Source: Amoebophrya sp. A120 (taxonomy: Eukaryota; Protista; Dinoflagellata). Taken from it: DNA of 64,000 nucleotides. Below the pieces are notes generated by a model, which had not been told where the DNA came from, did no database searches, and worked only from the letters and a program-made list of their open reading frames with translations. The DNA is taken from contig CAJINV010000009.1 in NCBI GenBank assembly GCA_905178155.1, forward strand, positions 3,847,556 through 3,911,555. Direction: 5' to 3'. A program made the position numbers and the translations under genes. Shown here in pieces: positions 3,221 to 28,000 of this stretch (its first letter is position 1; each line of letters begins with the position of its first letter).

Positions 3221-4222
3221 TCCGGGCCCTGTAACTGTAACCACACACCCCAGGCGACAGGTGCAGGCGACAGGCGAAAGGAGAGGCGAAGCGACAGGCA
3301 AAAGGAGAGGCGAAGCGACAGGCGAACCGACAGGCGAAACGACAGGCGAAACGACAGGCGAAACGACAGGCGACGACGACAGGCGACGACGACAGGCGGC
3401 GGCGACAGGCCAAAAGTGGCAACTTTTCACGCGGTTCCGCACCAGCAGCAGCAACAAAAAAAAAGCACAGAGCTACTTACTTCCGCGAAGAAAAAAGGGG
3501 CTCTTTAAGTAACAGAGTTGCTTTTTTCTTCTTGCAAATAATTGGCCCTTTGCTTTTTTTTTGTTGCTGCTGCTGCTGCGGAACCGCGTGAGAAGTTGCC
3601 ACCTGTGGCCTATCGCCGCCGCCTGTCGTTTCGCCTCTCCTTTCGCCTGTCGCTTCGCCTCTCCTTTCGCCTGTCGGTTCGCCTGTCGCCGTCGCCTCTC
3701 GTCCTCACCTGTCGCCGTCACCTGTCGCGACGAACAAACTCTATTTGTCCATGACAAGCGCATTTTTTTACTTCTCAAAAATAAATAGTGACTTACTTAC
3801 TAAAAGCAAATCTTATTTATTTTTGAAAAATAGAAAGTAGGTGGCAAACGCATGCGTTCGAGTTTCTTCACTCCGTCTCGGGTTAATTTATTCACGTGCG
3901 TGAAATAGTTACTATTTCTCGAATGTGAATAAATTAACTATTTTTTGCACATGGACATGAATTAAGATAAAAGAGTTGCTTTTTTCTGTCGAAAGTCAAT
4001 AATTCTTTTATTTATTTTTTTGCTTCTAGTGTTGATTCTGCTGGTGCGAAACCGCATGAGAAATGGCCACTTTTGGCCTGTCGTCGCCGCCTGTCGTTTC
4101 GCCTGTCGTTTCGCCTCTCCTTTCGCCTGTCGCTTCGCCTCTCCTTTCGCCTGTCGTCTCACCTCTCGCCTTCACCTGTCGCCGTCACCTCTCGTCTGGG
4201 GTATGTGATAACAGAACCCGGA
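3221..4222. repeat. Foldback structure with 12-bp GGCGAAACGACA internal repeats
   Basis: Arm ~3221-3470 is the reverse complement of both ~3550-3730 and ~4040-4222; AT-rich spacers. Confidence 0.85.
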
Positions 4223-4243
4223 AGTCAAGCAATATAAATATTA

Positions 4244-4314
4244 ATTCAAGAGTCATGCCTGACACGCATGACAAACATGCATTCTTCCAGACCCAGACAT
4301 TTTTGCACTTGATA
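4244..4314. mobile_element. Right-end fragment of a family A introner (left part displaced)
   Basis: AAGAGTCATGCCTGACACGCATGACAA...CCAGACCCAGACATTTTTGCACTTGATA matches the right end of copies 33977-34231 and 58254-58510; homology stops near 4244. Confidence 0.85.
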
Positions 4315-7300
4315 TGTGTGGATTTACCGGAAAAATCCGAGGCGCTATTCGCAAAATTGCCTATGTTCGCGAATTACATGCTGGTGGAAATGGAAAAAAA
4401 AGCGAAAACGTTGAACGAGTGGTATAGTTTTGTGTTTGGAAGTTATTACTTCATCGTGTTTGATGCATGACAAACGCATACATTTTGACGTGCCGGCAAT
4501 ACAAATTTGCTTTGCCAAAAATTCTTGTTCCACCTTAAAAAAATCGTATCTTATCTTCAGGCTCGACCGCTACCGCTTCTACATGAACCTGGAGCAGGGC
4601 AAACCAAAACCCGACGCGGAGGGGCAACAGAGGATTGCGAAGCTCCGGAACGACTGCGACACCGTCCTCGAGGATCTAGCGAAGGACCGGTGGCAAAAGA
4701 TGTGGAGCCGGTTGAACCCCAAAACGAACTCTTTCGTCACCGACGAGCGGGCCTGCGCCGACCGGAAGGTGATGCTGCTGAAGCAGATGGCGATGGTGAT
4801 CCAGGTTTTGATCAGGAGTAAAGAGTCGGGGCACTGGTTTGCACGGGATCTACTACCCTATTCTGGAAAGGAAAAAATGCAGGCGTTGGTGGAAAATATC
4901 AACACGATCAAGAAAGCGTATTTCCAGTGCGACACGTTTGAGAGAATGGAGAAGTGGCTCGGCTTCATGAAGAAGGAGGCGGAAGGGAAGTTTTTGAAGA
5001 AGGCGGACAGTATCATGAGTAAGTACGGGACTGTGTGCTCCTTAGGGTCCGGGGGAATTTGCGGTTTGAAATCCGGGAGCCCAAACGAGATCATGAAAAA
5101 CGCGATGGATGGTATACTAATACATGTTGATGTGATCTTGGCGATTTCCTGTTTGTGTTGAAGCGTTTTTCATCTTGCATCACCCAACTACTTACATCAC
5201 TAGCACTACATGTCGGGGGACATGTGTGGTGTTGCACGTCTGCTCCATTTGTTCAATTTGCAGCTCTGAATTTCATCACCAAATCTATTCTCACTCTATC
5301 AGGCGCCACCACTCCTTGCGAATACGTGGTCGCGCACCACTTGCTTCCCCACCACAAAACCAGCCCGATTCTTATGACGGAGAAGCTCAGGTGTTTGATT
5401 GGCACGGAAATTTGGGAAGATTTGCACGACAATTTTCCCCTCTACTGCAAGTTGATTTACCTTCTCTCCGACGGCCACAAGGAGTTCATTCACTTGGTCA
5501 GTTCCGAGTGCATTTTCGAATTCCTGAAAAAGCACTTCCGGGAGTCCATGTTGTTTCTCCACACGATTATAGACGTGCCGAAGAACGGAGGAGGTCCGAA
5601 TAACACCCAGAACAAGAATCCGATGCAACTGCAAAACCAGCAGAACAACAACAATAATCCCTCGGAACAGACCACGAAAAAAGTTCTTCGGATCTACGTC
5701 TTAGGGGAGGATGACGACCACAATTTCATCCCCGCAGTCAAAACCATCACCGGCTTAGTGATTGACAACACGTCGACGAATACCCCCGCGCCGAGTTTCA
5801 AGCAGGAATTTCCGAACTTACTCAGGGAGTTCCAGCATTGGCTGGATAAATTCCCGAGGGAGCTCATGGTCCCCTTTTCCCCGGGCCACATGGCGATGCA
5901 CAACTTCGGCCAGATATGAAAGCCTCAGGTTGGAAATCCTCAAAGTGGAAATAATTTGTAATGCAAGAAAACGACTCCAGTTGAACTTGAAGCACCATTG
6001 CTAGTCGGCGCATGAGAAATCTCCCGGACACTCAAAACGTGTCTGTCATGCTAGTTAGGCAAAGGGGTGCCCTTCTGTCGTGCTAGTCAGCAGCCCAATT
6101 CTGAACCAGTAGAAGCACAACAGTCGGCCTCCGTTGCGTCCACTGCAATACAGGGTTTTTTGCGTCGCATTTCACGCGTCACAAATTATTTCCACTTTGA
6201 GGATTTCCATTCTGAGGCTTTCATACCAGATGCAGATCGTTTTCAAATCCGGTGACGATACGACGACGAAGAAGACGCATGTGTCATTCAGAGATCCGAA
6301 AACCGGGAACATCACGGAGTTGACAATCAGGGATTTTCTCGAAAAGTTCGGGCCCGTTGGGAAAAAGGCGGATGAAATTAAGGAGATCATGGAGCAACAG
6401 TTGAAACAGAAGCAAGAGCAACTACAGCAACAGCAACTCTTGCAGCAGCAACAAAACAGGCTAGGAGCAGCTGGAGTTGTTCCTGGAGCCCCGGGCGGGC
6501 AGCCGCCGCGGCAGCAGGAACACCACCCATTGGCGGTGCAGGGTGCGAAGGAGCTGGCGAAGGTGTTGAAAGACAACCCTATCCCGATTAAAAACGTACC
6601 CACACCAGAGTCAAGATGGGGATTTTGCAACACAAACCTAGGAGTTTTGGGAGTCACGCATGACAAGTTTCAGTCTGTAAGGTAGTGCAAGTTAGCAAGG
6701 AAAGCCGCATCACAAATCGATCTGCTGATCCTGTTTACAGCATTACAAGTTCCCAAACACGATTGAGAATGCCTGTCATGGGGTTGCGCATCACAAATGT
6801 TCCTGTCATGGCAAATCTGCATGACAACTATGGTGCTTTTGGCTCAAGGAGAGCGCAGGCATAGCCTCAACGCCCCGCGCGTCTGTGTGCGCTTTGAAAA
6901 AAAACTAAAAAAAAAAAAAAAAATGTTCGCTGGTTCTTTTGGTGCTCCTCCCCACAGCGCCGGCACAACCTCCTCGGGATCGGGCCACGCAACTCGGAGG
7001 GACGAACGGCGCCGGCGAAGCACGCCTACAACCCAAGTGCGGCCCCAAGTGCGTTCGGCGCGGACGCGGCTCGGGTCGGCTTTGGCAAATGGACACCACG
7101 TTTCGCGCGGAGGCCCCCCAGCTCGCCCAAGCCAGTAGCAGCAAGCTCAATCGAGTCTTGTTCCCCATGCACAATAGATGCGAGGTAAGGGGCGCACAAT
7201 AGATGCGAGCTCAAGGCTTGGCACCGCTGGGGGGGATGGTCTTGGCCACATCGCGGGAATTTTCCCGCCGTGGAATCGACAATGGACCTGGCGCCGGCGT

Positions 7301-9179
7301 TTTACGCTTCTATGTTGCTCCCGCGTGGGCTGCGGTCCGCGTGAAGAAGCGTGTTCTACTTGAGCCGCCTTGCCAATCGTGTATCTGTGCTCCGAGCTTC
7401 TGGGCAAGTGTAAAGCATGCTTCTTGACCGCCAAAGTTTGCGGTCAGGTGGATAAGCATTAATTCTCGCTGCATCTCTTACCTTTAACTTGGATGTCTAA
7501 ACATCACTTCAGGCCTGCGCTTGTCGCTTAGTGTCTCCAGTGAATGCATTCATCCAGACAGTAGCTACGGGCTTTGCCGCAGGCTGCAGCTTTCTCTTGT
7601 AGTTGTGTGCCTGGCTGTACATTCCCGATATAGTGGTTGCGAGTTGGAAGTTTGCGAGAATCAGAGTAAGGAATTGTTGGCAAAAAAGTGAGGCGTTGTT
7701 CTGTTGGCAAGTGGGCACAAGTTGGCACAGTATGGCTGTTGGCACAGTATGGATATGGTTGGTGGCGATAACAGAGTTGGAATATAGTGGCCGGGAGATG
7801 ATGGTGATGGCACTTTGGCGTCCGCCTGACCCACCCGCCCTGCGTCTCAAGCCATCTGCGGCCATGGCACAATGGGGGGGCAAAGTGTGTCGCATTTTGT
7901 TTAGCATGACAACTATGGTGTGGGTACGTTTTTACTCAGGATAAACCCGCAGGCAAATCTAACCGGGGACGAGATCGTGAAGCGCGTGAAGGTATCAAAT
8001 GCAAAAATGTCTGGGTCTGGGACGAGATTGCGAGATTTGTCATGCTAGTCTGGCATGACTCTTAAATCTGTCATGCACGTTTCCCAAGAGCCCCATTTTG
8101 CTGTCATGCAGAAACGCAGTTTGCCATGCAGAATAGGCAACACCTAGAAGCTCAAAAGCTTGTCATGCTGAGCCAGCATAATTTGTGGCCTCTTCATGAT
8201 ACGCCACCCAGCATCACAAGTTTCCAGACCCAGACACTTTTACAATCCATACAAGGAGTTTGTCGCGACGTGCGGGAACATCGTGAAGCTTCACGAACAG
8301 ATGCAGCGGGAGTACCATGCGGAGGTGCAGCGAAGGGGCGGGCCGAATCATCCGAACGCGAAAACGATCGCGCCGGTCCGCGCGTTGGAGTCGATGTTGA
8401 AGCTGCAACTGGTGATTGCGACAACGAATAACCCCCAGCTCCACTCCGTCGCGCAACACCCAAAATTCCACACGATGGACCCGAAGCAGCAGCAAGCGAT
8501 GTTGCAGTACGTTTTGACAAATTCGGCGAATTTACCCGGGGGAAACAACAGTACTCAGGGAAATAATAATCAGGCGCAGCAGAATAATATGAACCAGCAT
8601 CAACAAAATAACCCGAATCAGTTGAACAGCATTCAGCAGCAATTACTGCAGCAGCACCAGCAACAGCAGAACCAGATGCAGCAGCAACAGCACATCCTGC
8701 CCATACCAAATCAACAGCAAAACCAGGGCAATAATATCATGCCCATGATTGCTCGGCAACAGCAGCAGTACAATCAGCAACAGCACAATATGCAGCAGCG
8801 ACATCAAAATAACATGATGAACAACTGGAGCCAAAAGGGTGGAAAGGGTGGAAAACAACATCACAACAACAATTACGGCGGGATGAATAACAACAACATG
8901 CATCATCAACAGTACAACAACCATAACCAACAGCAGCAACAACAATACAACCAGCAACAACAATATCAACAGCAGTTGCAAAATAACCAGAATCAGCATA
9001 TCTCACCACCCCGGCAAAACCAGACAATCTCCGCCGCGAGCTTGCTAGGGAATATGTCGATGTCGGCGGGGAACACGCCCGCGTCGACAAACAAACGGCA
9101 GTCGATGGAGCACAACAGTCCGGCGAAGAGGCAAAACGCGCCGCCCGTGAAGTTAGGGGAAGAGGATGATGAGTTGTAA
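4315..9179 (+). CDS. 5'-partial multi-exon hypothetical protein with Q/N-rich C-terminus
   Basis: Exons ~4315-4421, 4561-5111, 5303-5914, 6231-6579, 7949-7991, 8256-9179 join in frame (NEWLDRY, MDGATTP, FGQMQIV, KDNPQAN, RVKEFVA); stop 9177-9179. No family recognised. Confidence 0.8.
4422..4560 (+). other. GT-AG intron (GTATAG...TTCAG) with relic introner motifs
   Basis: In-frame join EW-LDR; contains GCATGACAA and GCAATACAA. Confidence 0.8.
5112..5302 (+). other. GT-AG intron (GTATAC...CTATCAG)
   Basis: In-frame join DG-ATT. Confidence 0.8.
5915..6225. mobile_element. Introner family C
   Basis: 45-bp TIR TATGAAAGCCTCAG..GGAAATCCTCAAAGTGGAAATAATTTGT with 2 mismatches; direct repeat CCAGA/CCAGA. 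Confidence 0.93.
6836..7903. mobile_element. Nested insertion with 17-bp duplication, probably retroposed
   Basis: GCATGACAACTATGGTG at 6819-6835 and 7904-7920; no TIR; starts with an SL fragment and has an internal poly(A). Confidence 0.85.
6837..6923 (+). other. Dinoflagellate spliced-leader fragment + 48 nt + poly(A)
   Basis: TTTTGGCTCAAG (6837-6848) equals the last 12 nt of DinoSL DCCGTAGCCATTTTGGCTCAAG, one base inside the insertion boundary; A8-CT-A17 at 6897-6923. Confidence 0.75.
7993..8251. mobile_element. Introner family A (forms a GT-AG intron 7992-8255)
   Basis: TIR TATCAAATGCAAAAATGTCTGGGTCTGG; repeat GAAGG/CAAGG. Confidence 0.92.
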
Positions 9180-11238
9180 GTAGTACAACTACCAATAGCA
9201 GTGCTAGCGACCTTGATTTACTGCAACATATGGCGGCTGTTGAAGAGAAGTGTCAATGTAACTCATGTTCAGTTTTTGTTTTGCAACGCAACAAGAAAAT
9301 TTACAACTAAATTACAACGATAGAAGCTGATCTGGTGATTAGCCCGCAGTCAGAATCTGTACCCTTTAATTGCTTGAGTGTCAACATGTTTTTTACCTAG
9401 GATTTCAAACACGCAATATCTGCGTTCAAATTCCAAGCAGCACTTGGAAATTTTCACAAGTTTTTCTGTCAGTCCTTTGTGTTGGACATGGACGTCGACG
9501 TGGATTTGCAACATACAAGAATGGCGGAAAAACTACACTCTACAGTTTGAAAAGCAAGACGATGAAACGTCAAATGGCGTTGGCTAGTAGACAGGCCCTG
9601 TTTTGGCGCTCCTGTTGTAAGTCAATATTCGTCACCCGCGCAGTCGCGTGCAATGGCTGAGCAGCCACAGCATTTTTTCTTGGAGAGCACGAGTTTGACT
9701 TTGTGTTGGAATTTTATGCTTGAGAATTACGAAGTAATTCGTTAGCACCAGTTTTGAGTCCATGGAAAAGAAGAGTCGTCTGCTCTCGTCTTCGTCTCGT
9801 CCATGTCTTCGTCCTAAGATCTAGTTGGTGGGTCGCGCATACCGCAAATAACGCGACGGCACAGGCAAACGTTCTAGCTCCGTACTGGCCCAGTCTCGGG
9901 CGTCTAAAGTCTCTTACTAGACTAGAAATAGTAAGAAGTTGAGAGAAGGAGAGAGGTAGAGACTTTCTTGAGAGGGAGCGTTGTAGCTCATTGACAACTG
10001 GCGAAACCTTCGCAGGTCTGCAGTGGCGAGACCGGTGCTGCGTGTGTAGCGGGGAGCCTTGGCCGACAGGCCGCCCCCGCTCTGCGGAAGCATGGCGCGG
10101 GCCCCCACTCTGTGGGCCACCGATTGCGTGTGGCGTCTTGAGTCGGCAACTCGTCGCCCATGCGTTTGGCGCCGCCCCCACATGGACGAGGGCACTGCCG
10201 TCAGCCGACGACAAGAACAAGAAGAGGAACGAGGTGGGTCGCCCGTCGTCTTCCGCGCGCCGAGCGGAGCCCTCAGGCCATTCGCTCGAGTGGCAGGCAG
10301 GGCCGGCCGCCGCCCGCCACATGCCGGCGCGGTAGCGGCCTGCCCGCATGTGGCGCCGACAGTGTCGGCGGCTTGTGCTTGTGTAGGGCGGGCGTCGCCC
10401 CGGCCTGCGCCGTTCAAGCCCGTCGCGGTCGGCATTGGCCGGGGGGGGGGCAGGCAGTCTTGTCGCCCGGCAATGGGGGCCGTTTCGCCCCTTGTGGTGA
10501 CCCAGGAGGCGTCGGCCGGGGCCGGCGGCCGGGTGGCATTGGGCCGGCGCGCTGTCGCTTTATTTTATTACGGCGGGTCAGTGTTATATTGGGCGCGGGC
10601 GCCAGCTGCAGCTCAAGCTCTGTATACATAGCTCGCCCAGTTCGCTGCGGTTGGGGTCGCATCGGTGGAGCGGGGGCCCAAAGCCGATGAGGCGTGTCAT
10701 CTGTGTATCTTCTGTTGTCTAGATATGCCACGCGGCGGCCACCGGGAGCCCGTTCGCTCAATCCGCTTCCGGTGGCAAGAATTTGTGTGCGTTGATATAG
10801 CAGCTTTCATCGACTGCTTTTTGCGCAGGAGCGTCCGTGCCGAAGAGGCTCTCTGTGAGTGTGGGCGCCGTGGTTTGACGATGTGCTGTGCCTGCGTTGT
10901 TGCGGGCAGTGGTGTTCTTTCATTTTCAATGATGGAGAGAATGAGCAGTAAAGGTAAACTAAAGCGTTGCCACCGTTGTGTGTGAACCCCCCGATTGGCG
11001 TGCCGATGAGCGATTGACAGGAGGAGCAGATATGTATCGAGCAGTTGCAGCTGTGGTCACAACTTCCATAGAAAATTATGCGGGGACTGTTTGCTCTAGC
11101 TCTTGCTCATCCTCACGCGAACGCGTCAAAATCAACATACATCTCGATCTGTCTCCATTAAACCCCAAGTTGTTTTGATGCGCTCGAAGTCCACCTCCCG
11201 CTAGCAATCTCTGATTGCAGCACCTGCTGCTCCACAAG

Positions 11239-11882
11239 ATGTTGTCTGCCGCGCTGCAGCGGACAGCGACATGTGGCCTCAAGATGAACAGGAACAGCTG
11301 CCGTGTTGGTTTAAAATCAAATAAAATTCCGGCACCTTATTTCAGACAGCAGCACTTCCAATCCCGCTTCTTCGCGGGCTCGATTCCGCCCCCAGATCCC
11401 AGTAGTAAGAAGTACCCGGTGGTTCCTGCGGGTGTTGGGACCGTAGCCCCAATGGAGGTCTACAACCCGCACGCCAACTGCTACACCGCCCTGGACCCAC
11501 TGAACCCAGGACAAGCGTGCAGTGACATGGGAGGCGGGAATGAAGGTACTACATGTCTGTAGAAGTGCTGACGTGTTTATGATCCTACGTCAACATCCTT
11601 TTTGTCGTGCGTGACCTACGATCTGATGTGAACGCCAACGCGGACGTGCATACATAGGAAGACTCGCACGACAAACTGCCAGGTATCCCCCGCGAGTACA
11701 TCGCCGCTTTTATCCAGCAACAGACTAAGCGAGAGCCGGAATTTCTCGGCGTCAGTACTTACTCCGGGTTGATTTGGGCGGTGCTTGCGGGCTGGTACTT
11801 CATCTACGGCTACTTCAACATCACCAGCAACTACCACGACACCTTCTGGCCACGCGTCTTCCTGTTTGGACTTTTCGACTAA
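11239..11882 (+). CDS. Small single-TM protein with mitochondrial presequence-like N-terminus (168 aa)
   Basis: Exons 11239-11545 and 11683-11882 (GT-AG intron); basic, acid-free N-terminus MLSAALQRTAT...FQSRFF; TM GLIWAVLAGWYFIYGYFNI. Confidence 0.7.
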
Positions 11883-12795
11883 GATGTTGCGATCACTTAG
11901 TACAACACCGGGCTTGCTGCAGTTGGTTTTCGAAAATACAACTAGCAACGAAATAAATGGTTTTATGGTGACGATCATGAGTCAGTAGCAGAAGCAGTCG
12001 AGGTTAGTACATGGCTTCCTCGCGGCGACCTCCTGACACATTCACGACTCAGTCCAAACGTGATTGCTGTGATGAAGCAGGTCGTGCAACTACCTAGAAA
12101 AAAAAGATGAGGCTGCTGCTTCGTTTTCGTTGTTCGAAAAGACTGCAAGAACCATGATGAGGAGGTCGAAATAAAATCACATTGTACACCAGAAGTAGCA
12201 AAGAAACAGAAAGTAAGTAAGCAAAATAGCTCAACAAGCTCATGACCTCACGCAGAATCACTAGCACCATCAAAACAAAGATGATGTTCGGAAAATCTGC
12301 AACATCTTTTCACTGCACGAAAAAAAGACAATCGCAGATCTTGACGAGGACGACGAGGTTTTTCATCGTCCTCTTCATACGAAAAAGTAAAGACGCCAAA
12401 GTTGTAGAAGATCTTCACCGGAAGCGTAACCGCTTACTACACAAAACGCGTTTTATTTTCGCGGCCATTGCTTATGCTTTGCGTTCTCGTGCTCGACTAC
12501 ATCATCTTTGGTTTATGTTGAACAAATTTGATTTGAACACGAAACCATGGTAGCGACTGAAGGAATTATCTGGAGGCGGTGCTCCTGTGGTCGGATTCGC
12601 ATTAAGTGCGCCTGTTCCTTGTAGTAGTGGCAAGAAAAAAACTACGCCCTATGCGGTGTACTAATATGTTTTTCCACTACTTTATTTCTACGTTTTGTTT
12701 CACATTCATTCTAGAAAGCGTTGACGACGTCCTCTTCATCTACGAATAAATTAATATAATAGTATCTTCCACGACCAAAACTACCCAGCGAGAAA

Positions 12796-15700
12796 ATGTC
12801 CGCCTTTCCCCACAACATCAACGAAGACGTCCAAATGGTTGTGGAAGAACAACAGCCGGCGCCTTCCAATCCCAACCTGGATCCCAAAGAAGAAAATGAA
12901 AAACCACGTTGGGACAGAGAAGACCGGGATAGGGTTTTATTTGGACACAAGAACAACCAGAAGGGCGATGGAGATAAAAACGATGATCCTCGCGACACCC
13001 GCCGTTTCATCGTCGACACGGTGAAAGGCGAGCACTCGGATGATTCGGAAAAGTTAGTCATCCGAACGAATAACGCAAACAAACGAGGAGGTGATGGGAC
13101 AACATCAAATGCTGACCACACCTTCGTCCCTTTCAACGCCGCAGGAATATCAAACCGATCCGGATCTGCCAGGAACAACAACAAAGGAGGCGACGGTGGT
13201 GCGAATTACGGGGGAAAGGGAGGAAGGGGAAATCGCCGGACTGGGAGTAATTTTGAAGATAGTTACGATGTGGATATGAACACCAGAGATGGCAGGCCGG
13301 GACCTTTGTACTCGAAAAAGGAGAAGAAATCGCCCCGGAATCTAGATTTGGAGCGGGAAATGGCAATGGAGCACGGCTGGAATGTAAATGACTTGCCCGT
13401 CGAGATGAAGAAGTCGCAGTGGTATCTGTGGGATGACCGACGGGAGGATATGAAGGGCGAGAATGGTATAAGTGTGAGATCATGGTGTTTTCGTTTTGCA
13501 TTGCAAATGCGGCCTGTATGGTGTTTTCTCCGTGACAAATTTCAATCATGAAGATCTTGCGCTGCATGATTTAGATTTGATTGTCTCCATGGTCTGCTCC
13601 AAATACGCATGACAACCTATCAGATCGCCGCCGTGGGTACGAAGACGACCTGCAAGTGGCCGCCCGGGGTGATAAGCGTGGCCGGAATGATCGTTCGAAA
13701 GGTCGTGGTTCTGCGGCAGGTGGCGGGGATAATTACAACACCTACCGAGGTGGACAACGGACATTCGAGGACTCTTTCAACAACGATTCAAACTACCGAT
13801 TCCGCCGGGAAAGCGCAAATAATGAGCGGAGTTCTTCTGGTGCTTATGGAGCCAGTGGCTACACTCGCGGAGGACGAGACAATTATGATGGCGGCTACAA
13901 CTCCTACGGCGGCGGTGGCAAAGGTAGCTTCGTCTCTTCTACCAAAGGGAAGGGAAAGCTATCGAGTGCGACGTTCTTCAGGAACAGCTATCCTTCCAAT
14001 TCGAACCCGAACGACGACAAGTGGGGCCACGACGGGTTTCTGCAATTGGAACAGTCGGAAGGAGTCCCGATCAAAGGCGGAAAGGGGTTTGCGGACTGGC
14101 GGGGGACATCAACAACCGGGGGTTTTGGCGTCAAAGGTGGAAAAGACCACGACCGCGAGTACAACTACAATGCCAAGGGCGGCTACGGGAAATCCTACTA
14201 CCGGCAACAGCAGGGTGGACGGAACTACACGCCCGACCGAGAAAACGTAAATCCAGTGAGTCAAAGAGCAGACGATTACATCTACGATCCGAAATCCGGT
14301 ATGAGCTACGAAGAATTTTTCAACAATTTGGAACATAGCCACGGCAAGGGTACTGGGAGGAGCAAAGGCGCCGGATCCTTCTCCTACGACAATTTTCTTG
14401 AGGCAGGAGGTGCTGAGCGAAACACGAATGCTGGAAGCAAGAACCGTTTCGACATCATTGTCGAAAATTACTGGGAGGATGACGGTAGACGTGAGAAACA
14501 CCGGGATGGCGATACCGGTATGAATCTACGTGGTGCTGGCCACAGAGGACGACGCGTTGCAGCTCCTGCCGTAGACCACGACAGTTCTGACAAAGACTTA
14601 TCCCGCAGCCTGTCTCGCGGTAACAATGAACGACACTTTGATGTTGACAAATTGAAGAAGAAGAAAAAGCAAAAGAAGCATGCTGATGTTGCTGGTGTGC
14701 AGAAGAATAAATCGAAGAAGGAAAAGAAGAAGAAACGACGCCATTTGTCTTCTAGCAGTTCTTCGGATCAGTCGATGTCAGAAGAAGAGGTGAATCCGAA
14801 AATCACCAAGAAACAGCTGGAAAAGCTCAAACAGCAAAAGCTGTCCTCAAAAACTGGGGCAACGAGCAATCCCTTCGCTAATACGAAGCACCAGCACACG
14901 AACCGTGCTCGAGCGGCAGTGAACGCCAAGGACTTGGATGTTGCAGCGGCTAAAATGAAGCCAGCAGAATGTGACGACGACGATTTGTTCGCCATGCTGG
15001 CTGGTGGCGGAACAACAAAGAAACGTGCTAGTATTTCAGGGAGAAATAATCGTCGTGGGGGGGATCATCATCCTCGTGACAATCGGAACAATCGGCGAAG
15101 CACCGGCAGATCTCCCTGTCGTCGCCGGGAGGAGGGCCAGGGCCACCGCGATCGGAGTAAAAACGTCGCTCGTGGTGAGCGCGACGCCCGTGCGGACCGG
15201 GAACGACGGGACCGGGAGCGCGATCAACATAATCGCCGCCGCGGGGGGAAAAACTACTCTCGCTCTCCTGCACCACGATCCAGAGCTTCCCGTCCTCGCG
15301 GAAACAACAACAACACGAAAGAAAATAAAGCCGCTGTAGCCGCGGCTGCGGCCCCACCGCAGCGGACCAACAAGCAAAAGTCTACTCTGATGAAGAAGAA
15401 GAAAGTTGATTCAGAATCGGATCTCTCTACCTCCTCCGCCGAGTCCGAAAATTCGTCGCGCTCTCGCGGCCGGAATACCAAGCAAAAACCCACTACGGCT
15501 GCTGGAGGACGTGCAGCTGCTGTGCGTGGCCGCGCCGGCGGCCACAATTCCTCGAAACAGACGCAGAACGGCGGGAAAAGGAAGCAAGGTCCACCTGTGG
15601 CTAAGAAAAAATCCAAGTCTTCTTCTGTGTCGCGCAGCTCCTCTTCCCACTCGCGCAGCCCAGGACCTGCTCCCCGCAGCAGGAAACTACCTCCGATGAA

Positions 15701-18071
15701 ACAGTCCCCAGAGGCTGCTGCTGCAGTTCCGAAGGCGATGAACGAGAAGCCACCGTCGAAAAGCAAAGACGCTGCTCGAGCAGCCCTTCGAGAAGACTCC
15801 AACTCCTCCGATGAGCGTAAGAAGGCACTGCGGGAAGCGAAATTGAAGAAGCGAGAGGAGGATAAGCGAAAACTGCTGGAGGGGCTGAACGCCAAGCGCG
15901 GCGCGGCGGCGAAGGACAAGATTGTAGGGACGAAGCAGAAAGAAAAGGATAAGGATGCTGAGCTGCAGGATGAGCACGCACAAGATCAAGACGACAAGTC
16001 GCAAAGCCGGAGCCAAAGCCGTAGCAAGTCCGGGCCGAAGGCAGTCAGGTCTAGATCTCTCGATATAGCGGGCAAGAAGGACCACGTGGAGGAAGTTTCG
16101 AAGAGCAAGAAAAGCAAGGAGAGGAACATCAAGGCTGATGGGAAGAAGAAGCCAAAGCCTGTGGGTTCTGTGGCGCCGAAAGAGGGTAAAGTTGCAGCTG
16201 GTACAACTTCTAAAAAGCGGCAGGACCACCACGACAACTCGCAGTCTCGTGTTCCTTCTCGTAAGAAGGATGACGAAGACGACCTGCCAAAGCGTGGCGG
16301 AGGTAAGAATAAGCCTACAACGCGGAAAGATACCGCTCCTAAGAACGACGACGACCAAAAGATTGTTCCTACGACTAACAAACGCGGCGCAGTCAAAAAG
16401 AAGCGAAAGTCCAGCTCTTCCTCTTCCTCGTCTGAAGCAGGGAAGAATTCTGATGTTTCCATGAAGAGCACTGAGTCTCCTGCTCGTGACGAGAAATCTT
16501 CCAAATCTAAACCTAAAACGAAAGCACCGAAAATGATGAACAAGATGTCGAAAGAAAACTCGATGAAATCAAGCAAGGGCAGTAAACAAGAAGACGACAA
16601 AAAGTTGTCCAGGAAGGCAAAGGGAAACAAGCTGAAGAGCGATCGCGCGGCTCAAGACCATGAGGACCATGGTTCATCCAGCGGCTCCGAAGAATCCCGC
16701 GGCCGTGGGCGAGGAGGACGTCGTGGCCTCCCGGCGAAAAAGTTGAAAGTCCAGAAGGAAGACAACCACGACGAGGAGTCGCAACAAGAAAAGAGCGACC
16801 ACAAGAAGTCGAAGAAGGCTACTGGTGATGAAAAAAATGAAAACCAGGCGGATTTTAGGAGCGGCAAGAAGACCAGCATGAGAGGAGCTTCAGATGACCG
16901 AGAGGACAAGGCGGAGAGCAAATCCACCAAATCGAAAACCAGCAAGAATAAACCTGTTCCAGTTTTGAACGAAACCGACCAGATGATGGAGGATCTGCTC
17001 GACGGGAAAAGTGTCCATTCTGAGGACTACAAAAAAGACAAAGCTCCCTGTAACATGAGGGCGGAGAGGGAGACATCACATAAAACTGGCGCGCATCGGG
17101 ACTACATGCCAGAAACCATCAAAGACAAAGAAGGATCTGATGGTGGTCATGAAGATGATGTTGTGATGCAACACGATGCCAAAAACGACGACCCGGAACA
17201 ACCGGATGCGAAGCGGCGCCGCGTCACTGCCACAGCAGCCGAGAACGACATGACATTGTTGGAAGTTGGGCGCAAGAACAAGGACAAACAGGGCGCTCCT
17301 GCTGACAAAGAAAATGTACCGCAAGATGAAGAACCTGCTGCGTCCCCGCCCCCGATGGTGGAAGTGCCGTTTGAGGGTTTGGTGCCGGAGGAGAAAGCGG
17401 AGAAGGTTAAGGAACTGCAGAAGGTGTCGCAAGCAACAAAGGCAGTGAACGAAAAGGAAAAGAAGGAGACTGCTCTATTGGAACCTGTCGACGGTGCTAA
17501 GAAGAAGCAATCATCTTCTTCTCCGGCGAACAACAACAACACTACCGCACAAGCAGCCTCCGGCCCTCCCACCACCTACATTCGCGATCAGAAGCTCCCG
17601 CAGATGCCTCGCGGTGGCCGCCAAGGATGGATCAAGCCGGAGACGGAGCCGAGCACGTCCAGATCCAGAAGTGACAGTCGCAGCCGCGGCGGTGCTCCTG
17701 CTCGTGGTCGGAAGGCGAAAGCCACCAAATCCGGTGGAGCCGGTGCGGGAGGCGGCGGGGCTAAGATGAATCCGCGTAAAAATGGAGACAACAGCAAAAC
17801 AAAGACGAATACTAAAGCGCGGAGGGTCAGTGAAGAATCATCTCGTTCCCGCTCAGATTCCCGGTCTCGCGGACGAGGAGGCGCTGGTCGGAAGAAGGCG
17901 GCCAACAAAGCGAAACCCAAAAAACGCGCGGGCTCAGGCCGTTCTCCTTCTCGTTCTCGCCGCCGGCGGTCGAGGTCTCGTTCTCAGTCGAAAAAGTCTC
18001 AATCGGAGCATTATTTGCGGTCGCCCCCGCCGTGCCCTTGGCCGAAACTCGGCGGGGGGAACAGGAAGTGA
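12796..18071 (+). CDS. Large low-complexity RGG/RS/K-rich protein with Btz-like motifs (~1705 aa)
   Basis: Exons 12796-13465 and 13624-18071; motifs WYLWDDR and KWGHDGF; many SRSRS and RGG tracts. Confidence 0.8.
13466..13623 (+). other. GT-AG intron (GTATAA...CTATCAG) with relic GCATGACAA
   Basis: Phase-1 join EN-DRRRG; motif near 13607. Confidence 0.8.
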
Positions 18072-19085
18072 GTTTTATTTTTTTTCGTTTTCACAAAAGG
18101 AAAAGTAAAAGAGAAACGCAAGAGGACGACGGCAGCATGACAACGAACGTTGTTACAGTTCAAAAGAAAGCAAAATCGGCTTTCAGATGTAAGGGTGACT
18201 GAAGCACATGACTTCGATTTGTTGATTTCGTTTCAACGATACATTCAGGGGGTTTCGGCTCGATTGCGTGGATCGGCGAGCTCTCGCCTTGTAAGTGAGT
18301 AGACAGAGAGCCGCAAAAAATTTACTACAAGAGTACGTGCTCTTTCAAACGACAAAATTTATTTCTGCGAAACTAGTGCTAGCAGCTGCAGCACGATTCT
18401 ATAAATTTAAGGGTGCAAATGTACCACGAACATCAAATAAGGAGCTCTTTGGAAAACGAAAGGATCGACGCCCCAGCTACATTCTAGCGTGGGCTGCAAA
18501 CTATGACTGTGATTGAGTTCCACGCAACGCTGTGTTCTTTGTAACACGCATGATAGTCTTGAAGCAAGATTTCGGTGTACTTTTTGCTCGAACTGTGACT
18601 AACTGTTGATATTCATCGAGACACCCTGCAGTCCTACTTGCTGTTTGCGCATTTTGGCACAGCATGGAGGGAAGCGAGTGGAGAGCCGCGACGAGAGAGC
18701 AACATCAATGTTGAGAGACCGTGCAGAGTGCGTCGAGTTCTTCTCCAGGAAATCGAAATTGCTTGTTTTGAAATAAGTAGTACTCGTACGTAGATAGTTC
18801 GCATTTATACTTGTTGGAGTGAGTGAATAAAACTTGAAAAATCACAACAGGCCTCTACTCAAGACCTGATTTTATGCATGTTTCTACCCGACGAGCACGA
18901 GAAGTCTACCCTCTTTCGATTTCAGATTGTCGACGTCCTCCCCAATCTCGATTTTTCTTGCACGAGTGTCACTTCTTGCTCCTGAAATCTGTAAAAGATT
19001 CAACAAACATTCAAAATCTTTAGCTCTCGTACAGAATTTCTGTTTGAAGATGCGGAATTTTTAACATCAATACAGCCATTGTAAA

Positions 19086-22000
19086 ATGGCTGACGTACTG
19101 CACATGATGGGTCGTTGTACTTGTACATCAGCCACCCCGAGCTGCTCTAGCACGAGCAGGCCGCGGTTTTTTGACGACAGGGTGGACCACAAAGACCAGT
19201 TGTTCTCGGTGGAAGTTGATATGTCTTGTTTTGACGACATCGGCTCCACCTGCGCCGGCCCAGTAACAGCACGGCCTTCTTCAAGAAGAAGCAGAACCGT
19301 GCTGGAGGACGGAGGGCGCAAGATAAACATGGCCAGTACACTATTTTCAACAAGAAAACCGCCTTCCTGGGATACAGGACAGCAAAGTGAGGACACCGGG
19401 AGGCCACCAGGAGGAGGAACGACTGCACCGAGGACAGCAGTCGCAGTCCAAGCTGCTCCTGCAAACAAGAAAACCATGTTGCTGCACAAGCTCAAAAACA
19501 AAAATCAAAGGGAACAAAGTCAGTCGCTTTTCCTGCTCTGGAGGTGGTGGACAGCGACGAGACCAAGAGAGAAACTACATTTCTTGAAGAAACTCGGTTG
19601 GTTGTTCCTCTACTTGCTGAACCTCTTCACTTTGACAACAACTACCCTTGCCGAGGTGAAGTACCCAAGACACGAGGAGGACATCCCCGGACATCCAGAT
19701 TTGGTACGTGTAACTTACAAGTTAGACGATATCAACGGAGATGAAGATGATCATCTCCACAACCACGTCTACAAACCGGTGAAAGAGGAATTTTCTGTGT
19801 CATCAAACAGTGGTGCGTCATCAGCTGCTGCTGCATCATCAAATAAACCGATTCCCGGCTGGCAGCACGCGTCGCCGATAGGATCTTCTGAGCAATCCTG
19901 TTCTTCTGGTTCCTGTTCCAAAACCGCACCAAATCAGCATGACACCGACAGTACCCACCACATAGACCATTTAGGTCGGAAAATCCCAAGGAGGCTGTTC
20001 GAGGAAGAGGCAGACAACCTCGCGGCGCAAAGGATTCGCAAGGAAACGCAGGAGTACGAGCGGCCAAAGAATTTACCGCCAAATAAACAGCACGGGGATC
20101 ACTACCGGGCGTTGCTGAAGTCCAGGTTCCCGCTCGATAACGACGCGGACAAATACGAAGTGGATCACGAAGCCGGGGTAATCAGGCAGAGATTTGACCA
20201 CAGACCGGTGGTTAGGTTGAAGGAGACGAGTGGTAGTGCAGGTAAGGAAAACGATCAACAGCAGCTCCACGACGCCGATTTTGCCCGGGGTGAAAGAGGC
20301 AGTAAAAGGCAGCTAGAAATCGACGGCGTCGTCGACCCAGCTGGGGTCGTGATTGAGGCTCCAATAGTAGAAAACAAAAGTCAACAGCAGGACAACACAG
20401 ACCATCAAAACAAAAAGAGGATAAGAACCGTTGCGGGTAGGGATGAAAACCACTTCGAGGAGCGGCTGAAGGAGACGACAAAACAAGCCGAGACCGCGCT
20501 TCAGAAGTACAATGAGGAAGTAGCGACAACGAAACGTCAACTAACCGAACAATTTCCAAACGAGACGGAGGAGCAGCGGGAAAAACGGTCCCTGCAGATC
20601 AACACGGCGGCGACTGCTGCGCTTTGCGCGTCCGGTGAAGTCTCCTGTTTTTTGAAGCAGGAAGTGTGTCGTGGGATGGACGCGGCGAGACCGGGGTACT
20701 TCTGTGGGGAACGGTGGGGAATCACGAACGTGGTGAAGATAGAGGATCAGTGGGAGATCGCCGATGTGGAATTTTTCTGGGACCGACAGTGCGACAAACC
20801 GGTGCAGGGATCGCCACGACAGCAGTCCTTTTCCGATGCGAACGCAAATCCGCCGTACAAGGATATTTCCGCCTTGGCGTTTGACAACAACAACAAAACG
20901 GCGTGGTTGGCGAACTGCGGGGCGGATTTAGGCGGCTGTCCCGCGTATGACCCGACGAAACAGGGACAGAGGGTATAGAAGTTGTTTTGTTGGTACAGAA
21001 GTTTCTCATGCTGACGACGCATTTCTTATTCAGTTTCTCAACTTGTTTGCCACGCGCACTCCTGTGCTACTAGTTCACTTGCAGTAGAAGTTGCGGAACA
21101 TCAAGATCTTCTTGGTCTTGCTTTTATCGAAATATAAACAAATTTATCAGGTTGTCAACAACGTCGGCCCGAATACCGTGATCTACCAGCAGCTTAGAAA
21201 AAGCGATGACCCGGTCACGAATCCGAACAACCTTCCGATTTACGGCAATGTGATGTTGTTCGATCCCGCCACCATGTCTGGTTTTACCGACGGCGCGATC
21301 AAATGCGTCCGGATCCACCAGAGCAAAATTACAACCAGACAGGCCTACCACATCGCGGTGGTTTTCTGGGACACGTTGCAGTGGGTGAAGTACGCCGATT
21401 ACGACGCGTTGGCCGGGGGTGGGTGGCTATGCAAGAAAAAAGTGTGTAAGTGTAAATCTGTGATGCAGAAAATGCCAAACAGTTACACTTGTCGTGCTAG
21501 GCATGCATGGCCGGCTCGCTTCCTATGTGTTTTTCCTCTGTATCTGCGCATAACAAGTTTGTTCTGTCATGGCAGACAAACTTGTGATGCTGTTTTCCCA
21601 AAAGGCTTACACTAACACAGTTTTTTTCTTGGATAGTGGCAAACCAGACCGCCGATTGGGAACACGGTGTGGAAGTTGACGAACCTTAATCCGACCGTCT
21701 CCCCTTGGACCGTGAATGAACTCTACTTCTTCGGGGATCGACGCTGTGACTACGCGTTACACGGCATCCCGATTGGCAGGGAAAACGTCCGGCAGTTACC
21801 CCAGTGCTTGCCCACGCCAGACAACCCGGCGGGAACGTGTGAAGAGACCTCCGTCGAGAAAATCCGGGATAACGACGTCACCACCGCGTACCGCGCCAGG
21901 TGTACGCAAACGGTGGGGGTGGTCGAAGCGCCTTGTTCCTCGGGCGAGGCCTTCGTCGGCTACGACTACGATTCCGCACCTTTAACGGTGTTGTGTATCA

Positions 22001-25000
22001 AAATGTGGTCGGATGCGCACGCGGGGTACGGGCAGCAGTGGCACAAGTCGCAGCATTCTGAGGCTTTACAGCTCCAAGTCTGGGACGGGCAGCAGTGGGC
22101 GGGGAAGAAGGATTTGATGAATATGCTGCCGAATCAGTGGAACTACGACTACGCTCCGATAAACACACTGTGGCGGATCACCGCGGACGAGGTAATTGCA
22201 GAGTGGCGGGTCGCGGAATTGGAGTTCTACAACAACCCATTCTGCGACACGACGGACGACAGTGGGTTGGTGCAGGTGTTACCAATCCAACGAATCCCAT
22301 TAGTCGGCGATGCTTTCGACAGCAACATGGTATTAGGTATCGACGAAGAGGCGACAGCCTGCGCGGACACCCAGATTCTGACCACCTGCGCAAGGAAGGT
22401 GTTCGACGGGAAGATCGACACTTTCTGGCGGGGGTTATGCCGACCGGGGATTCCGTGTGAAAGAGAATCGAATTACATCGGAATGTTCTCCAATACTCCG
22501 ATCGACGTGCAGTGCTTCAAGATCTACCAGAGTCAGGATCCGCAGTTTTCCGTCTCAACGGTTCACATTTCCTCCTGGGACGGGAACGGCGGGTGGAGCA
22601 TCCCGAATCCCTGGTCTGCGCTTTCCTCGACCATCGGCGGAATTCAGAACGATCTCGGCGGGGGAAGCTGGAACAGACGGCCGGCTTTTGATTACAGCAT
22701 GTGGAAACTGTCGAATGCGGTAGTGACGACGCTGCAATGGAGAGTTGTCGACGTTCACCTCTTATGGATTGTAAAAATGTCTGGGTCTGGAAGGTTGGAA
22801 CTTGTAATGCTAGCTTTCCACACCTAGAAAATCAAAATCTGCATTGCATAACCAACAAAAGTCGCAGCCTCTTTTGTCATGCAAAAACGCAGCTCCTCAT
22901 GCGGATTGCCTATGAGAAAGCGTTTTGGGAAGTTGTCATGCCGGACTGCATTCGGAAGTGTTTTCATCATGCACATTTTAGCATCACAAGTTTCCAGACC
23001 CAGCCACTTTTGCATTTGATACCTCTACTCCGACAAGTACTGCACCACCCGGATGGACGGCCTCGCCTGGATCGCGGCTGGATCTACTGGAATCGCGAAC
23101 GGGGTCACAATATCAAATGCAAAAATGTCTGGGTCTGGAAGGTTGGAACTTGTGATGCTAACTTCGGACTCTAAGAAACTCTGTATTGCATGACCAGCAA
23201 GAGGAGTGTAGTTTGTGCTACGCGAGGAGGGCGTTTGTCATGCGGAGTAGGCAACATCAGGAAGCCCTCTGAAAATCTGTGATGCTAGGGCGTGCATTAT
23301 AGTCGTCCTGGGTCATGCAAAACATGCATGACAAGTCTCAGAATCTTCCAGACCCAGACACTTTTACAGTTGATACACCATGGCGGCGGACGGACACAAC
23401 CAAACTTTCTGGGAATGCGAGTGCTTGGCCGCGACCGGCGGGTGTGACCGATTCAACGCGTGGCTGGGCGTGCAGCGGACGTACAACAAACCCGCTTTCC
23501 TCGCTTCGAATATCCCGAGATGTCTGGTAATTGATATGGAGTTCTCAAATGTTACGTTCTCAACTGTTACATGAATTTGTAATGCAAGAATGGCAAAAGT
23601 CAAAGAAGAGAGGTTGCACCTGAAGCATTACAAATTCCGCACAGATTTAGGCGCTGTCTAGCCTTTCCAAGATTTGCCATGCGAAGCAGCTTGATTGTGT
23701 GCATGTTGATGCTCATTCTGCATGACAAATCATGTAACAGCTGAGACTGTCACGTTTGAGAGCGCCATAATTGACCAGTTCAGGGACAGCGCGTACCAAA
23801 GTGCGGATATCCGGCTGGAGACCTGGAACGGCATTCGGTGGTATAGGATTTGTTGGAAGTTGTCTTGTTTCAGCTTGCTGACAATGTCATGCGCCACTTC
23901 TCTTGCAGTTCCAGTTGCAAATCATGACTTTGTCTTGCGAGTTTCACATCATCCATGAGATTCTTCATGCAAAAAACCTCATACTAATCTATCAGGTTCG
24001 ACCCCGCGGTTGAAGTTGGTGCAGCTTCTCTGACCGACTACTCCGGTTCCTGGTTTTACGACCTTGGTGGCGGTACCGGCCACGCCAGACCCGGCTTCAC
24101 CGGTACCCAGTGGCGATTGAAAGCCGATGACTCGGTCGACTGCTGGCAGGTGTATTCCCTGGAACTCTTCCTGGATTCCGAGTGCAAGCCGGAGAAGGAG
24201 GTGAAGTTCCTCACCGACAACGGCGCGAGAAATCCGAACGTGAAAGCGATCGGCTCTGGTCACGTGAAAGGGTCAGAATTGACAGCGTATGTTCAAAGAA
24301 ACGAAGCAAGGATCAAAGCGGATTTCGGGGACGTATCAACTGCAAAAGTGTCTGGGTCTGGAAAAGTGTAGACTTGTCATGCAGATTTTCCATGACCCAT
24401 GAGGTCTAGAGTGCGGGAATGAGCATGACAGACTCTGCGAGGTCTCTGCCATGCCTATCCTGCATGAGAAACTCCCTTCCAACTTGGTCAAAAGTTTCCA
24501 GCTTTTGGCACTCATGCAACACAGATTTTTGCATGCTTCAGATTTACCATGACAAGTTGCAACCTTCTAGACCCAGACACTTTTGCAATTTATACGACGA
24601 TGCGATCAACTATTTGATCGACATTGACGCGGGGGAAGAGTTTATCGCAAGAAACAACTGTTTCACTTTGAACTTGTGATGCATAGAATGGAAGACAGAG
24701 GTATTATTTGTCTTGCCACACCTGCAAGAAGACCTCGACTCTTTAGCGGTGTTCTTCTCCCTTTGGAAGCGCGCATGGCAAATTTTCTGTGTCATGTGTA
24801 ACAAACTTGTGATGCAGATCTTGCAAGATCATCACGGTGAAACACTTTTTTCGTGGGATAGAGTTCCCGGTCTTCAACGCCTTCGACAAAAACGAGCAAA
24901 CAAGTTGGGTCGACATCCGGGATAAATCCGTGTTGGGAACGAGGGGAATGGAGAATAAGCAAGCCCAGTACCCACTGTTCTTAGGTGTAGACTTCGGAAA

Positions 25001-28000
25001 TTCCCCGACCATGAACGTCAACTGCATCCGGATCTGGCAGCACTCCCAATTCTTCAGCCGGAACATGAAACTGGAGTATTGGGACGGGGTGCGGTACGCG
25101 CAAAAGGACTACGGAATCGGGCAGAGCTGGAATCTGCGAGGGTTTAGTGGAGGCAGTTGGCAAAGGTAGTACGATAGGCTTTGAAGATTCCTTGACGAGT
25201 TGTTGTAGTCTTCATGCAGTAGAAGGGATGAAAGTCGTGACAAGGAAAGAAGAACTGTGAGCGGTGTAACAAGTCTCGTCTTTTGTACCGTCGTGAAGAC
25301 GGATATTGATTCGAAATTAATTTTTACGAAAAACCGATTTTACGAAGATCAAAATTTATCGATCCCCCGAAAAACAACTTTATCCCAGGTGGCCGGCCTC
25401 CTACCAAACCATCTGGCGGATTGAAAACGCGGTTATGATCCCGGAGTCCTGGGAAATCGACGAGCTCGGGTTCTACGACACGGTAGGCTGCCTAGCTACG
25501 CCATTAGGAACCGCGGACGACATCATCGTGTCCGGCTACCGGGGGGATCACTACGGCTCTCTCGCCATGGACGGCTACGTCCGGTCCGACATGCGGGAGC
25601 GAGACGACGGCGGTTTCGTCCGGTACCCTAACTCCTTCTGGCGGTCCGGCTGCGGCCCCTGCTACCCGAAAGACGCCTACATCGGGCAAGACTTTGGATT
25701 TCAAAGAAGGCAGGTCAAGTGCATTCGGATCTTCCAGGCGCCGGCGATAGAGCGGCAGAGTCCGATAATTGACTTGACGTATTGGGACCCGAGCCAGGAC
25801 AAGTTCGTGCTGGATAGTGATAAAAAGTTCTACTCGATTGGTGGCGGCAGTTGGAACCGGAGACCGGCGATGAGCAACAGCATGTTCCGATTAAGGTGTA
25901 TCCTGTGTAAAAACGTCCCCACACCAGAGTTGTCATGCAATTCTGCATGCCAAGAAAGTTTCTCATGCGGAGCTCTATGTATGAGAGGCATTTTCTGTTC
26001 GTGTTTTGGAATTTGTGATGCTAGGATCAGCGTACTACGCTAGATCTGTGATGCTTCTGAACTAGCTAAACAGGATTACACTACGAGGACATCAAACTTG
26101 TCATGCCAAACAACGAAAGGTAGCTGATTTGTCTAGCAGATTTCCCATCTTGACTCTTTCTGTGGGGACGTTTTTAATCAGGATAAAGTGGGTCCAAACC
26201 CGGCCCAAGTCGAAGAAGTGTGAAGCAGGAAGATTATCCGCAGTAAATTTCCCGTACACGTACAAATGCGGTCTCTGCATGACAAAACTTGGCTTCGGAC
26301 CGCCACGACCCACTGACCCCCGGTCACGTGCCGTCCGGCCGGCCGGACGGACGTGACCCGCCCGGTCACGTCTAGGCTCCTTGTTATCTTGTAATTTTTA
26401 GGGCAGGGGACCTAAGGCCCACCCACCTGGGTGGGTCGAAGGTCCCCTGAGGACCTAAGCGGACATTTTGTGACCCTCTTCTTATAAAATCCACGCATTT
26501 TTCGTGTGGTTGTCCTAGGTGAGCTAGCACCCGTACCCGTGGGCAACCATCTAAGACACGAAAAATGGCGAGCACTTTAGTCCTTGGCTTTCTCTGGTTT
26601 GGTCATGAGTGTGGGCCACTTCTTAGGGTGGTCGAGAAAGTCAGGCTAAAGACGGTACGGGCAGAAGTGGATCGGTTTAAACGCGCGCTGGTGTTTAGTA
26701 CTTAGTAGCTTTTTAGGGCTTTGGGTATATTAATTTCCCGTCTTGGGGTTTGTAATGTAGTTGTTGCGCCTTTGGTTGTTTGGTCATGTTCCGGCTTTTT
26801 GCATGATCTGATGCTGTCTCGGACGTTGGCGCTCACGGTTCCTTCTCTGCTCTCTTGGAGCGGACGTTTTTGCATTTGTCCGCTGCGACAGTTCGCCTTG
26901 TTGCTGCTGCTCGCCATGAAAGCAACTACATTGCTTCTCGCCTCACTTTTTTAAGATGGGTTTTTTCGTAGATGGGTCTGTGTCATAGTAGATGCTTTAC
27001 CGCTTTTTTACTTTTCTTTTCTCCCTCGGCGCTAGTGTTATGGGTTTGCATACTCAGATAACAACAAAAGCTCATCCTGCAGCCGTCCCAGGAGCTCTTT
27101 GTTGTTGTCTCTCGGTAGTGATTATTTTGTCCAAATCTATTTCGCCTAGAGTTTGCTGGGTAGGCGGCTACCGTTTTACGACAGTTTACACAGGGACGCC
27201 CTGCCCTTAGTTTCCCAACATGACAAAACTTGGCTTCGATCCTAGGTTAGCATGACAATTTTTACCCTCCTACTTGGTGAAATTTGTGATGCATCTTGTA
27301 CATGTACGGGAAATTTGTATTGCATAAAGATACCGCTCTTTCACCCGGGCTTGGGGCGTGAGCGAAGTGGAGTTTTTCTCCGACGACAAATGCGAGTCCA
27401 AAATCCCGCTGGAGAACAACGGGCGCGAACCCGTATGAGAGTGCGCAACTCCCACTCCCCCTCAGTTGTATTGCATGAACAGCAATGCGAACACCTGCAC
27501 AGCACGTGGAGCAAGTGCATAACAAATTCATGTGCCTAGTGTAGTACTGTTTTGTTTGGGGTTCTTCCGGAATCTGTCATGCAAAAAGTGCTACTGGAAA
27601 GCATTTGCGTTTGGGGTTTTGCATGACAAAGGAGGGGGAGGGGGACGAGTTGTGCACTCTCATAATCCGGGGAGCCGAACCAGAATATCGGGTCCCGGCA
27701 GCGGAACATGGTCGCGACGGTGGTGTCCGGGGGGTACAAACAAATTGCCGCGCAGGCATCCGTCACCTACGACTACTACCCGCTGAACGTTGCTTATGGG
27801 AGTGTCAGAATCGAAATCGACAAAGTCGAAAAATTTGTAATGCATAAAATGCAGGGCACGCAAGGCCTGTATTGGGGAACAGGCAAATGGGGCCGATTGC
27901 AAGCCTGTTTAGGGCTAAGCAATGTGCAGCCCGAGTAGCATGACAGGAGCAGTCTTCTTTGCCCAAACAGCATGAGAGACTGGATTTGGGTGCTCCCGAT

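Follow-up and report, generated by a model that had tools for sequence, protein, structure and literature searches.

In a window of 64,000 nt of the Amoebophrya sp. A120 genome (the whole stretch analysed; GCA_905178155.1, contig CAJINV010000009.1, positions 3,847,556 to 3,911,555), we found two sequences of about 1 kb, insert 1 and insert 2, each lodged within an introner, a repeated intron element with terminal inverted repeats (TIRs). The insertion pattern is real and non-random. The inserts belong to two multicopy, apparently non-coding families located at the site TG^CATGAC(A/C), where ^ marks the cut, and probably got there by target-primed reverse transcription (TPRT) with the endonuclease and reverse transcriptase (RT) of an autonomous non-LTR (long terminal repeat) element. 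The two insertions and their hosts were as follows.

6580..7943, + strand: host introner of family D (TIR element), empty length about 280 bp, length with insert 1 about 1.36 kb
6819..6835, + strand: left 17-bp target duplication, starting with the motif GCATGACAA
6836..7903, + strand: insert 1, a 1068-nt member of family 1 with neither TIR nor detectable protein
7904..7920, + strand: right 17-bp target duplication, exact repeat
26235..27327, + strand: host introner of family E, about 155 bp when empty, enlarged by insert 2
26278..26297, + strand: left 20-bp target duplication, starting CATGACAA
26298..27218, + strand: insert 2, a 921-nt member of family 2, apparently without coding capacity and either composite or truncated at the 5' end
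27219..27238, + strand: right 20-bp target duplication, exact repeat

An earlier note on this DNA had described duplications of 17-20 bp at the motif, and both were recovered as exact repeats: GCATGACAACTATGGTG (17 bp) at 6819 and 7904, and CATGACAAAACTTGGCTTCG (20 bp) at 26278 and 27219. With the insert and one repeat taken out, host D aligned end to end with its sister copies at 29679-29957 and 25895-26185, and host E with those at 43298-43459 and 50145-50298. The sisters therefore show the empty site, as the note had stated, and the motif belongs to the empty target. The inserts are also dissimilar, as described there; they have one 14-nt chance match in common, and neither resembles the rest of the window at the DNA level.

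For family 2, metagenome contigs were scanned with the last 20 nt of insert 2, the motif being left out of the query, which gave six matches. Such a scan selects the 3' 20-mer and leaves the junction behind it and the 5' ends free. One match (L001) was discarded as chance, sharing the 20-mer alone in a sequence of 64% GC with no motif within or directly after it. The other five loci carry introner families of the window at up to 99% identity.

L002: 501-nt insert, 18-bp duplication
L003: 128-nt insert, 9-bp duplication
L004: 771-nt insert, 19-bp duplication
L005: 40-nt insert, 17-bp duplication with one mismatch
L006: insert of up to 1430 nt, duplication of at least 15 bp, where the contig ends

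CATGAC directly follows the 20-mer in all five loci (CATGACA in four, CATGACC in one), so that the unbiased copies and the window copy have the same 3' flank, and the 3' end of insert 2, ...GCCCTTAGTTTCCCAA, is common to the five further copies. All five are inside introners, and these represent three families distinct from D and E. The expectation of the earlier note that duplication starts follow the motif, and that the inserts reside mainly in introners, was thus borne out by each of the five independent copies. The homologous site of one introner family was used by L002, L004 and L006; these are separate events because their 5' ends and duplications differ, L002 being also of another subfamily (78-81% identity to L004 and L006 over the last 110 nt). 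L004 corresponds, at 95% identity, to L006 shortened at its 5' end, and short microhomology is present at the 5' junction. Over the last 110 nt the family 2 copies are 70-97% identical, and subfamilies are present.

The motif GCATGACAA occurs 69 times in the window (39 on the + strand and 30 on the - strand), and 58 of these copies are within recognisable repeat introners, in agreement with the earlier claim that most introner families carry it. Its copies outside repeat introners (4465, 13607, 18135, 35708-35772, 50808 and 61270-61304) are apparently mostly in ordinary or singleton introns, and could represent either a signal of introns in general or what is left of old introners. GCATGAC, with 87 of its 102 sites in recognisable repeat introners, starts at 0.0041 of strand positions inside introners (87 occurrences in 10.6 kb of introner DNA), compared with 0.0008 over the window. 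At the within-introner rate, the probability of finding five of five copies at the motif is about 1e-12.

The seven fully sequenced sites, two in the window and five at the loci, all read Y-T-G^CATGAC(A/C). This YT refinement is post hoc: YT precedes 52 of the 162 GCATGAC sites in the window and loci, and one contig junction reads GTG. The variable motif GCATNACA is in its G form at all seven insert sites, compared with 130 of 253 overall. The starts of the two window duplications may reflect a single cut, G^CATGAC, if insert 1 ends ...TTTAG, the G being ambiguous. Judged by flanking open reading frames (ORFs), all seven inserts have the orientation of the host gene (sense). The window has equal numbers of YTGCATGAC sites on its two strands (14 vs 14), and the sense bias has p of about 0.008 for the seven inserts and 0.03 for the five unbiased ones, which is suggestive only.

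A fixed 3' junction, variable 5' ends, duplications of variable length, absence of terminal repeats and 5' microhomology are the footprint of TPRT. Duplication lengths here were 17, 20, 18, 9, 19, 17 and at least 15 bp. Family 2 has a fixed 3' end with variable 5' truncation (copies of 40-1430 nt), and for family 1 a depth gradient and three joints point the same way. TIRs or long terminal repeats were seen in none of the seven inserts, whose ends match at 5-9 of 30 positions, the chance level. The TPRT proposed in the earlier note is thus supported by fixed 3' ends, variable 5' truncation and duplications of 9-20 bp. In the mechanism we propose, the bottom strand would first be nicked between the G and the C of the motif (TGCATGACA), priming cDNA synthesis at the 3' end of the element, a second nick 9-20 nt downstream would determine the duplication length, and early termination of cDNA synthesis would yield the 5' truncations. 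The duplications would start at the motif because in the TPRT model the duplication begins at the first nick. With the motif mostly in spliced-out introners, insertions would be nearly harmless and the target both abundant and safe. The copies, non-coding over up to 1430 nt, would be either non-autonomous elements or long 3' untranslated regions (UTRs).

The abundance of both families was examined through contig depth. Unique flanks had a depth of about 40-48 in run X1 and 17-28 in run X2 (two runs of one sample); summed contig depth is not a copy number, and we used the shape of the profile alone. For insert 1, X1 contigs were near single copy at 6929-7090, rose to 230-615 at 7091-7738 and to 4200-4700 over the final 160 nt; its 5' part of about 250 nt, with an internal A run, is accordingly near single copy and its 3' part multicopy. 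X1 record 6 contains a 1347-nt relative of insert 1. For insert 2, the body had depths of 0-2600 (holes occurring in X1) and the 3'-end bin a depth of 9556, partly from the host introner. Summed depth is maximal at the 3' end of both inserts, and short 3' pieces are far more abundant than long pieces. Among the joints listed, a GCATGACAA motif is soon followed by a 3' piece of insert 1 in three X1 contigs (6668->7854, 6832->7895 and 7918->7786); these joints were taken at a likeness of 82, and low-likeness joints can stem from repeats.

Contigs of other runs added junctions for family 2. Of the records listed for X3 and X6, five extend beyond 27218 (22, 23, 26, 30 and 31), and each goes on in CAT(G); no loose end occurs at 27218 among those listed. 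X6 record 26 continues from the element 3' end into CATGACAAA and from there into the terminal part of another introner family. Two X6 records open at 26887 and 27193, and in front of them stands GCATGACAA with a further 12 and 16 nt, respectively. Two further features were distinguished in insert 2.

26298..26482, + strand: hairpin-rich 5' module with two palindromes
26496..26567, + strand: predicted 24-bp stem-loop, also in the 1430-nt copy of L006

The 5' module is also found in other contigs with different flanks (X6 record 25; X3 records 17, 18 and 20). Covariation in the stem-loop is weak and not above shuffles (three double changes in two sequences, a value reached by 72 of 500 shuffles). 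A 2313-nt contig (record 21) with a depth of 1262 in X3, a probable RNA run, matches 44 nt of the conserved hairpin. In X6 record 25, the 30 letters before 26298 form an open GC-rich frame ending TAG (X1 has a loose end at 26315), which hints, from the reading frame, that the copies are long 3' UTRs. The long copy at L006 16-1445 holds five GCATGAC motifs, four of them antisense; it may itself be targeted by elements of its kind or carry the signal of the introners.

Several points weigh against the reading of motif-directed TPRT. Neither RT nor endonuclease was detected in inserts 1 and 2, the 1430-nt copy of L006 or the ORFs scanned (100 of 153 from the window and loci), so the relatives encoding both that the earlier note had asked for did not come to light. 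Homologue searches with the three + frames of 7091-7903, among longer proteins, returned none, which is weak evidence. The inserts end in ...TTTCCCAA and ...TTTGTTTA(G), with no poly(A) or simple-repeat tail; such a 3' tail is common in non-LTR insertions and not universal. The scan detects exact-20-mer copies only, and three of its five loci are at the homologous site of one family, which is less independence than the p value assumes; this reduced independence yet cannot rescue chance. Beyond the listed loose ends, a further 97 for insert 2 and 1055 for insert 1 could include copies off the motif. About 15% of GCATGAC sites (15 of 102) are outside recognisable repeat introners, and from a reading of the sequence most of these appear to be in other introns. 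Motif targeting is less firmly supported for family 1 than for family 2, joints in contigs taking the place of an unbiased flank test.

The search for coding capacity covered proteins and RNAs. In Pfam, the 12 frames of the two inserts gave three matches only (E 0.16-0.27), and the 100 of 153 ORFs (>=130 aa; window and L002-L006) gave TPR and adenosine deaminase only, with no RT. A 100-aa open stretch at 7603-7902 had no phmmer match among 1.84 billion proteins, and an Atlas comparison of the insert 1 frame, with scores up to 0.81, was uninformative. The RT ORF of an autonomous long interspersed nuclear element (LINE) was not found in these copies, which may lack the full-length 5' end. With respect to restriction-like endonuclease (RLE) clades (CRE, R2, R4, NeSL/Utopia and HERO), defined by a CCHC finger and PD-(D/E)xK downstream of the RT, one insert 1 frame contains the word 'PDIVV', with no search support; the idea of an RLE remnant in insert 1, based on the spacing of CGQ..H and PDIVV, was dropped after phmmer and homologue searches came back blank. 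Three Rfam scans of the inserts and L006 gave two weak matches far below threshold. No head of a short interspersed nuclear element (tRNA, 7SL, 5S or snRNA) matched in Rfam for either insert or L006, whose copies may lack the true 5' end, and no hammerhead ribozyme or terminal repeats were found in these copies by Rfam scans and end comparison; Penelope-like elements and retrozymes are marked by a hammerhead ribozyme, pseudo-LTRs and a GIY-YIG endonuclease. Viral contigs gave no match to an introner TIR or the insert 2 end.

Four other explanations were considered. Random insertion into a motif-rich compartment gains something from the density of GCATGAC in introner DNA; for family 2 it is refuted by five of five unbiased copies at one nucleotide and one strand, and is hardly credible. 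The question of chance, raised by the earlier note itself, is thereby settled for family 2. The inserts might instead be passengers of the same mechanism, namely retrocopies or chimeras of non-coding RNAs that are abundant in the host, mobilised in trans by a LINE specific for the motif. The lack of coding capacity, the modular 5' parts that vary between copies and the X3 contig with 44 nt of the hairpin are all in line with this; we consider it unlikely, since an identity of 70-97% with subfamilies is more readily explained by repeated replication than by a single source gene, and no Rfam family matches.

The motif could also be the binding or nick site of the introners' own mobilising protein, with cDNA or DNA captured there by repair and no element endonuclease needed. 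Repetition of the motif inside most introner families, the failure to find a partner enzyme and the microhomology at the 5' junction would suit such capture. It would not predict an invariant 3' nucleotide at an invariant cut in six of six family 2 copies or clean duplications of 9-20 bp, and the cut lies within the introner rather than at its ends, which makes this explanation quite improbable. Penelope elements truncate and make variable duplications, and a Penelope-like or other non-canonical retroelement preferring the motif, in place of a LINE with an RLE or apurinic endonuclease (APE), would account for the missing tail, the hairpin-rich modules and the variable duplications. It is very improbable, given that Rfam scans revealed no hammerhead or other ribozyme and that neither a pseudo-LTR nor an inverted partial copy is present at the ends.

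The + strand genes in the window are interrupted by short TIR repeats, about 50 in number and 150-320 bp long, which belong to several families, start with TAT, run to an A stretch and are flanked by short direct repeats. Both hosts have the marks of an introner, being repeated TIR elements with short flanking direct repeats and removal from mRNA; for host D removal is indicated by X6 record 17, which comes from what is only guessed to be an RNA run, and for host E only by the restored frame. The exon following the first enlarged intron is:

7944..7988, + strand: host exon of 45 nt after enlarged intron 1, open frame ...VLKD-NPQANLTGDEIVKRV-KEFV...

X6 record 17 matches 6226-6574 and 8253-8600 with 45 letters between, and exon 7944-7988 restores the open frame. 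The 1.36-kb intron carrying insert 1 appears to be removed in frame, according to this probable RNA contig. The frame around host E is open once the intron is taken out together with one 4-bp flank repeat. A raw RNA run (X9) placed three reads and was uninformative. Intron 1 is thus apparently still removed in frame even though 1.1 kb has been inserted 25-40 nt before its 3' end, a natural test which shows that the border signals withstand a large internal insertion. At L003 2257-2665, GTAAG stands on both sides of the host introner, as if it had inserted into and duplicated a canonical donor site.

Other repeats were observed in the window. An element of about 500 bp (55204-55701) has TIRs of about 40 bp starting TAT and a 5-bp flank duplication (GAAGT), and sits in a triplicated coding stretch of an adenosine-deaminase-domain gene. 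The same gene contains a 1.35-kb foldback element (55838-57190), unlike the short introners, with inverted arms of about 560 bp (81% alike) and a flank duplication of 5-7 bp; local coding duplications surround both elements (54710-55826 and 57190-57239), including an exact 68-bp repeat at 55136/55759. A satellite-like, GC-rich array whose repeat unit measures about 170-190 bp occupies 178-2463. Upstream of the first gene, 3235-4214 is a large imperfect palindrome of CGACAGG/CCTGTCG repeats in inverted and direct blocks. The GC-rich intergenic regions 9800-11100 and 37500-38800 have no Pfam match and are possibly other elements.

A wider reading, which we advance tentatively, is that a retrotransposon system reads one short motif of hundreds of unrelated introner families, probably their protein-binding signal, and that several non-coding families insert in sense only, are transcribed in the host pre-mRNA and are removed with the intron. 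If true, this would be a third tier of parasitism upon intron invasion, with an enzyme nicking a 7-9 bp site present in thousands of copies, nearly always in spliced-out DNA. The insertions described above add a new class to the safe targets of sequence-specific retrotransposons, the motif of a whole population of intron-forming transposons instead of one gene or element. They also single out GCATGAC(A) as a conserved, protein-recognisable signal in non-canonical introns, and the partner enzyme, if found, would be a short-motif-specific integrating system. How such introns are mobilised and spliced is an open question (PMC7789003).

The hosts fit the published description of A120 introner elements, which are inverted repeats with a TAT start, an A-run end, direct repeats of 3-5 nt and non-canonical borders (PMC7789003). 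Non-LTR elements have been reported from the Amoebophrya A120 and A25 genomes (PMC7789003, PMC12130899), and 4 of the 58 A120 families in the dataset of PMC12130899 are labelled non-LTR, as whole introns. Both papers class whole introns, and retro-insertions nested at a motif inside TIR introners are not described in the parts covered. The same holds for motif-nested retro-insertions in literature searches at the level of listings and abstract openings, in passages of PMC11282704 and in 23 of the 58 A120 rows of the PMC12130899 dataset, a scope outside which lie the subscription literature, figures and Repbase. Four motifs, insert ends included, were absent from 12 of the 14 supplementary files of PMC12130899, with cells compared up to 400 characters.

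The inserts work like a target-specific non-LTR system, but the copies at hand do not pass the test for RT. CRE, R2, R4, NeSL and Utopia resemble them in precise 3' and variable 5' junctions, multicopy targets and, in some, duplications of up to about 20 bp (PMC4640811); Utopia combines such junctions with 20-bp duplications, and transposons are among the targets of target-specific RLE non-LTR elements (PMC4640811). Unlike these RLE elements, the present copies yielded no RT, zinc finger or PD-(D/E)xK, and their target is not an RNA gene, nor is it a microsatellite. The closest precedent is Tx1L/Tx2L in Tx1D of Xenopus laevis (PMC6719617, PMC1950540), where a retroelement likewise occupies a fixed site inside another, unrelated transposable element, regarded as a harmless multicopy target. 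Tx1L is autonomous, has a tested APE endonuclease and targets one DNA-transposon family (PMC6719617, PMC1950540), whereas the copies here are non-coding, the 7-9 bp motif occurs in at least five introner families, the hosts are introns of coding genes and two dissimilar insert families use one motif. Retroelements that target another transposon are already known from Tx1L in Tx1D and from PMC4640811; what is new is a target consisting of a short motif common to at least five unrelated introner families and used by two dissimilar families of inserts.

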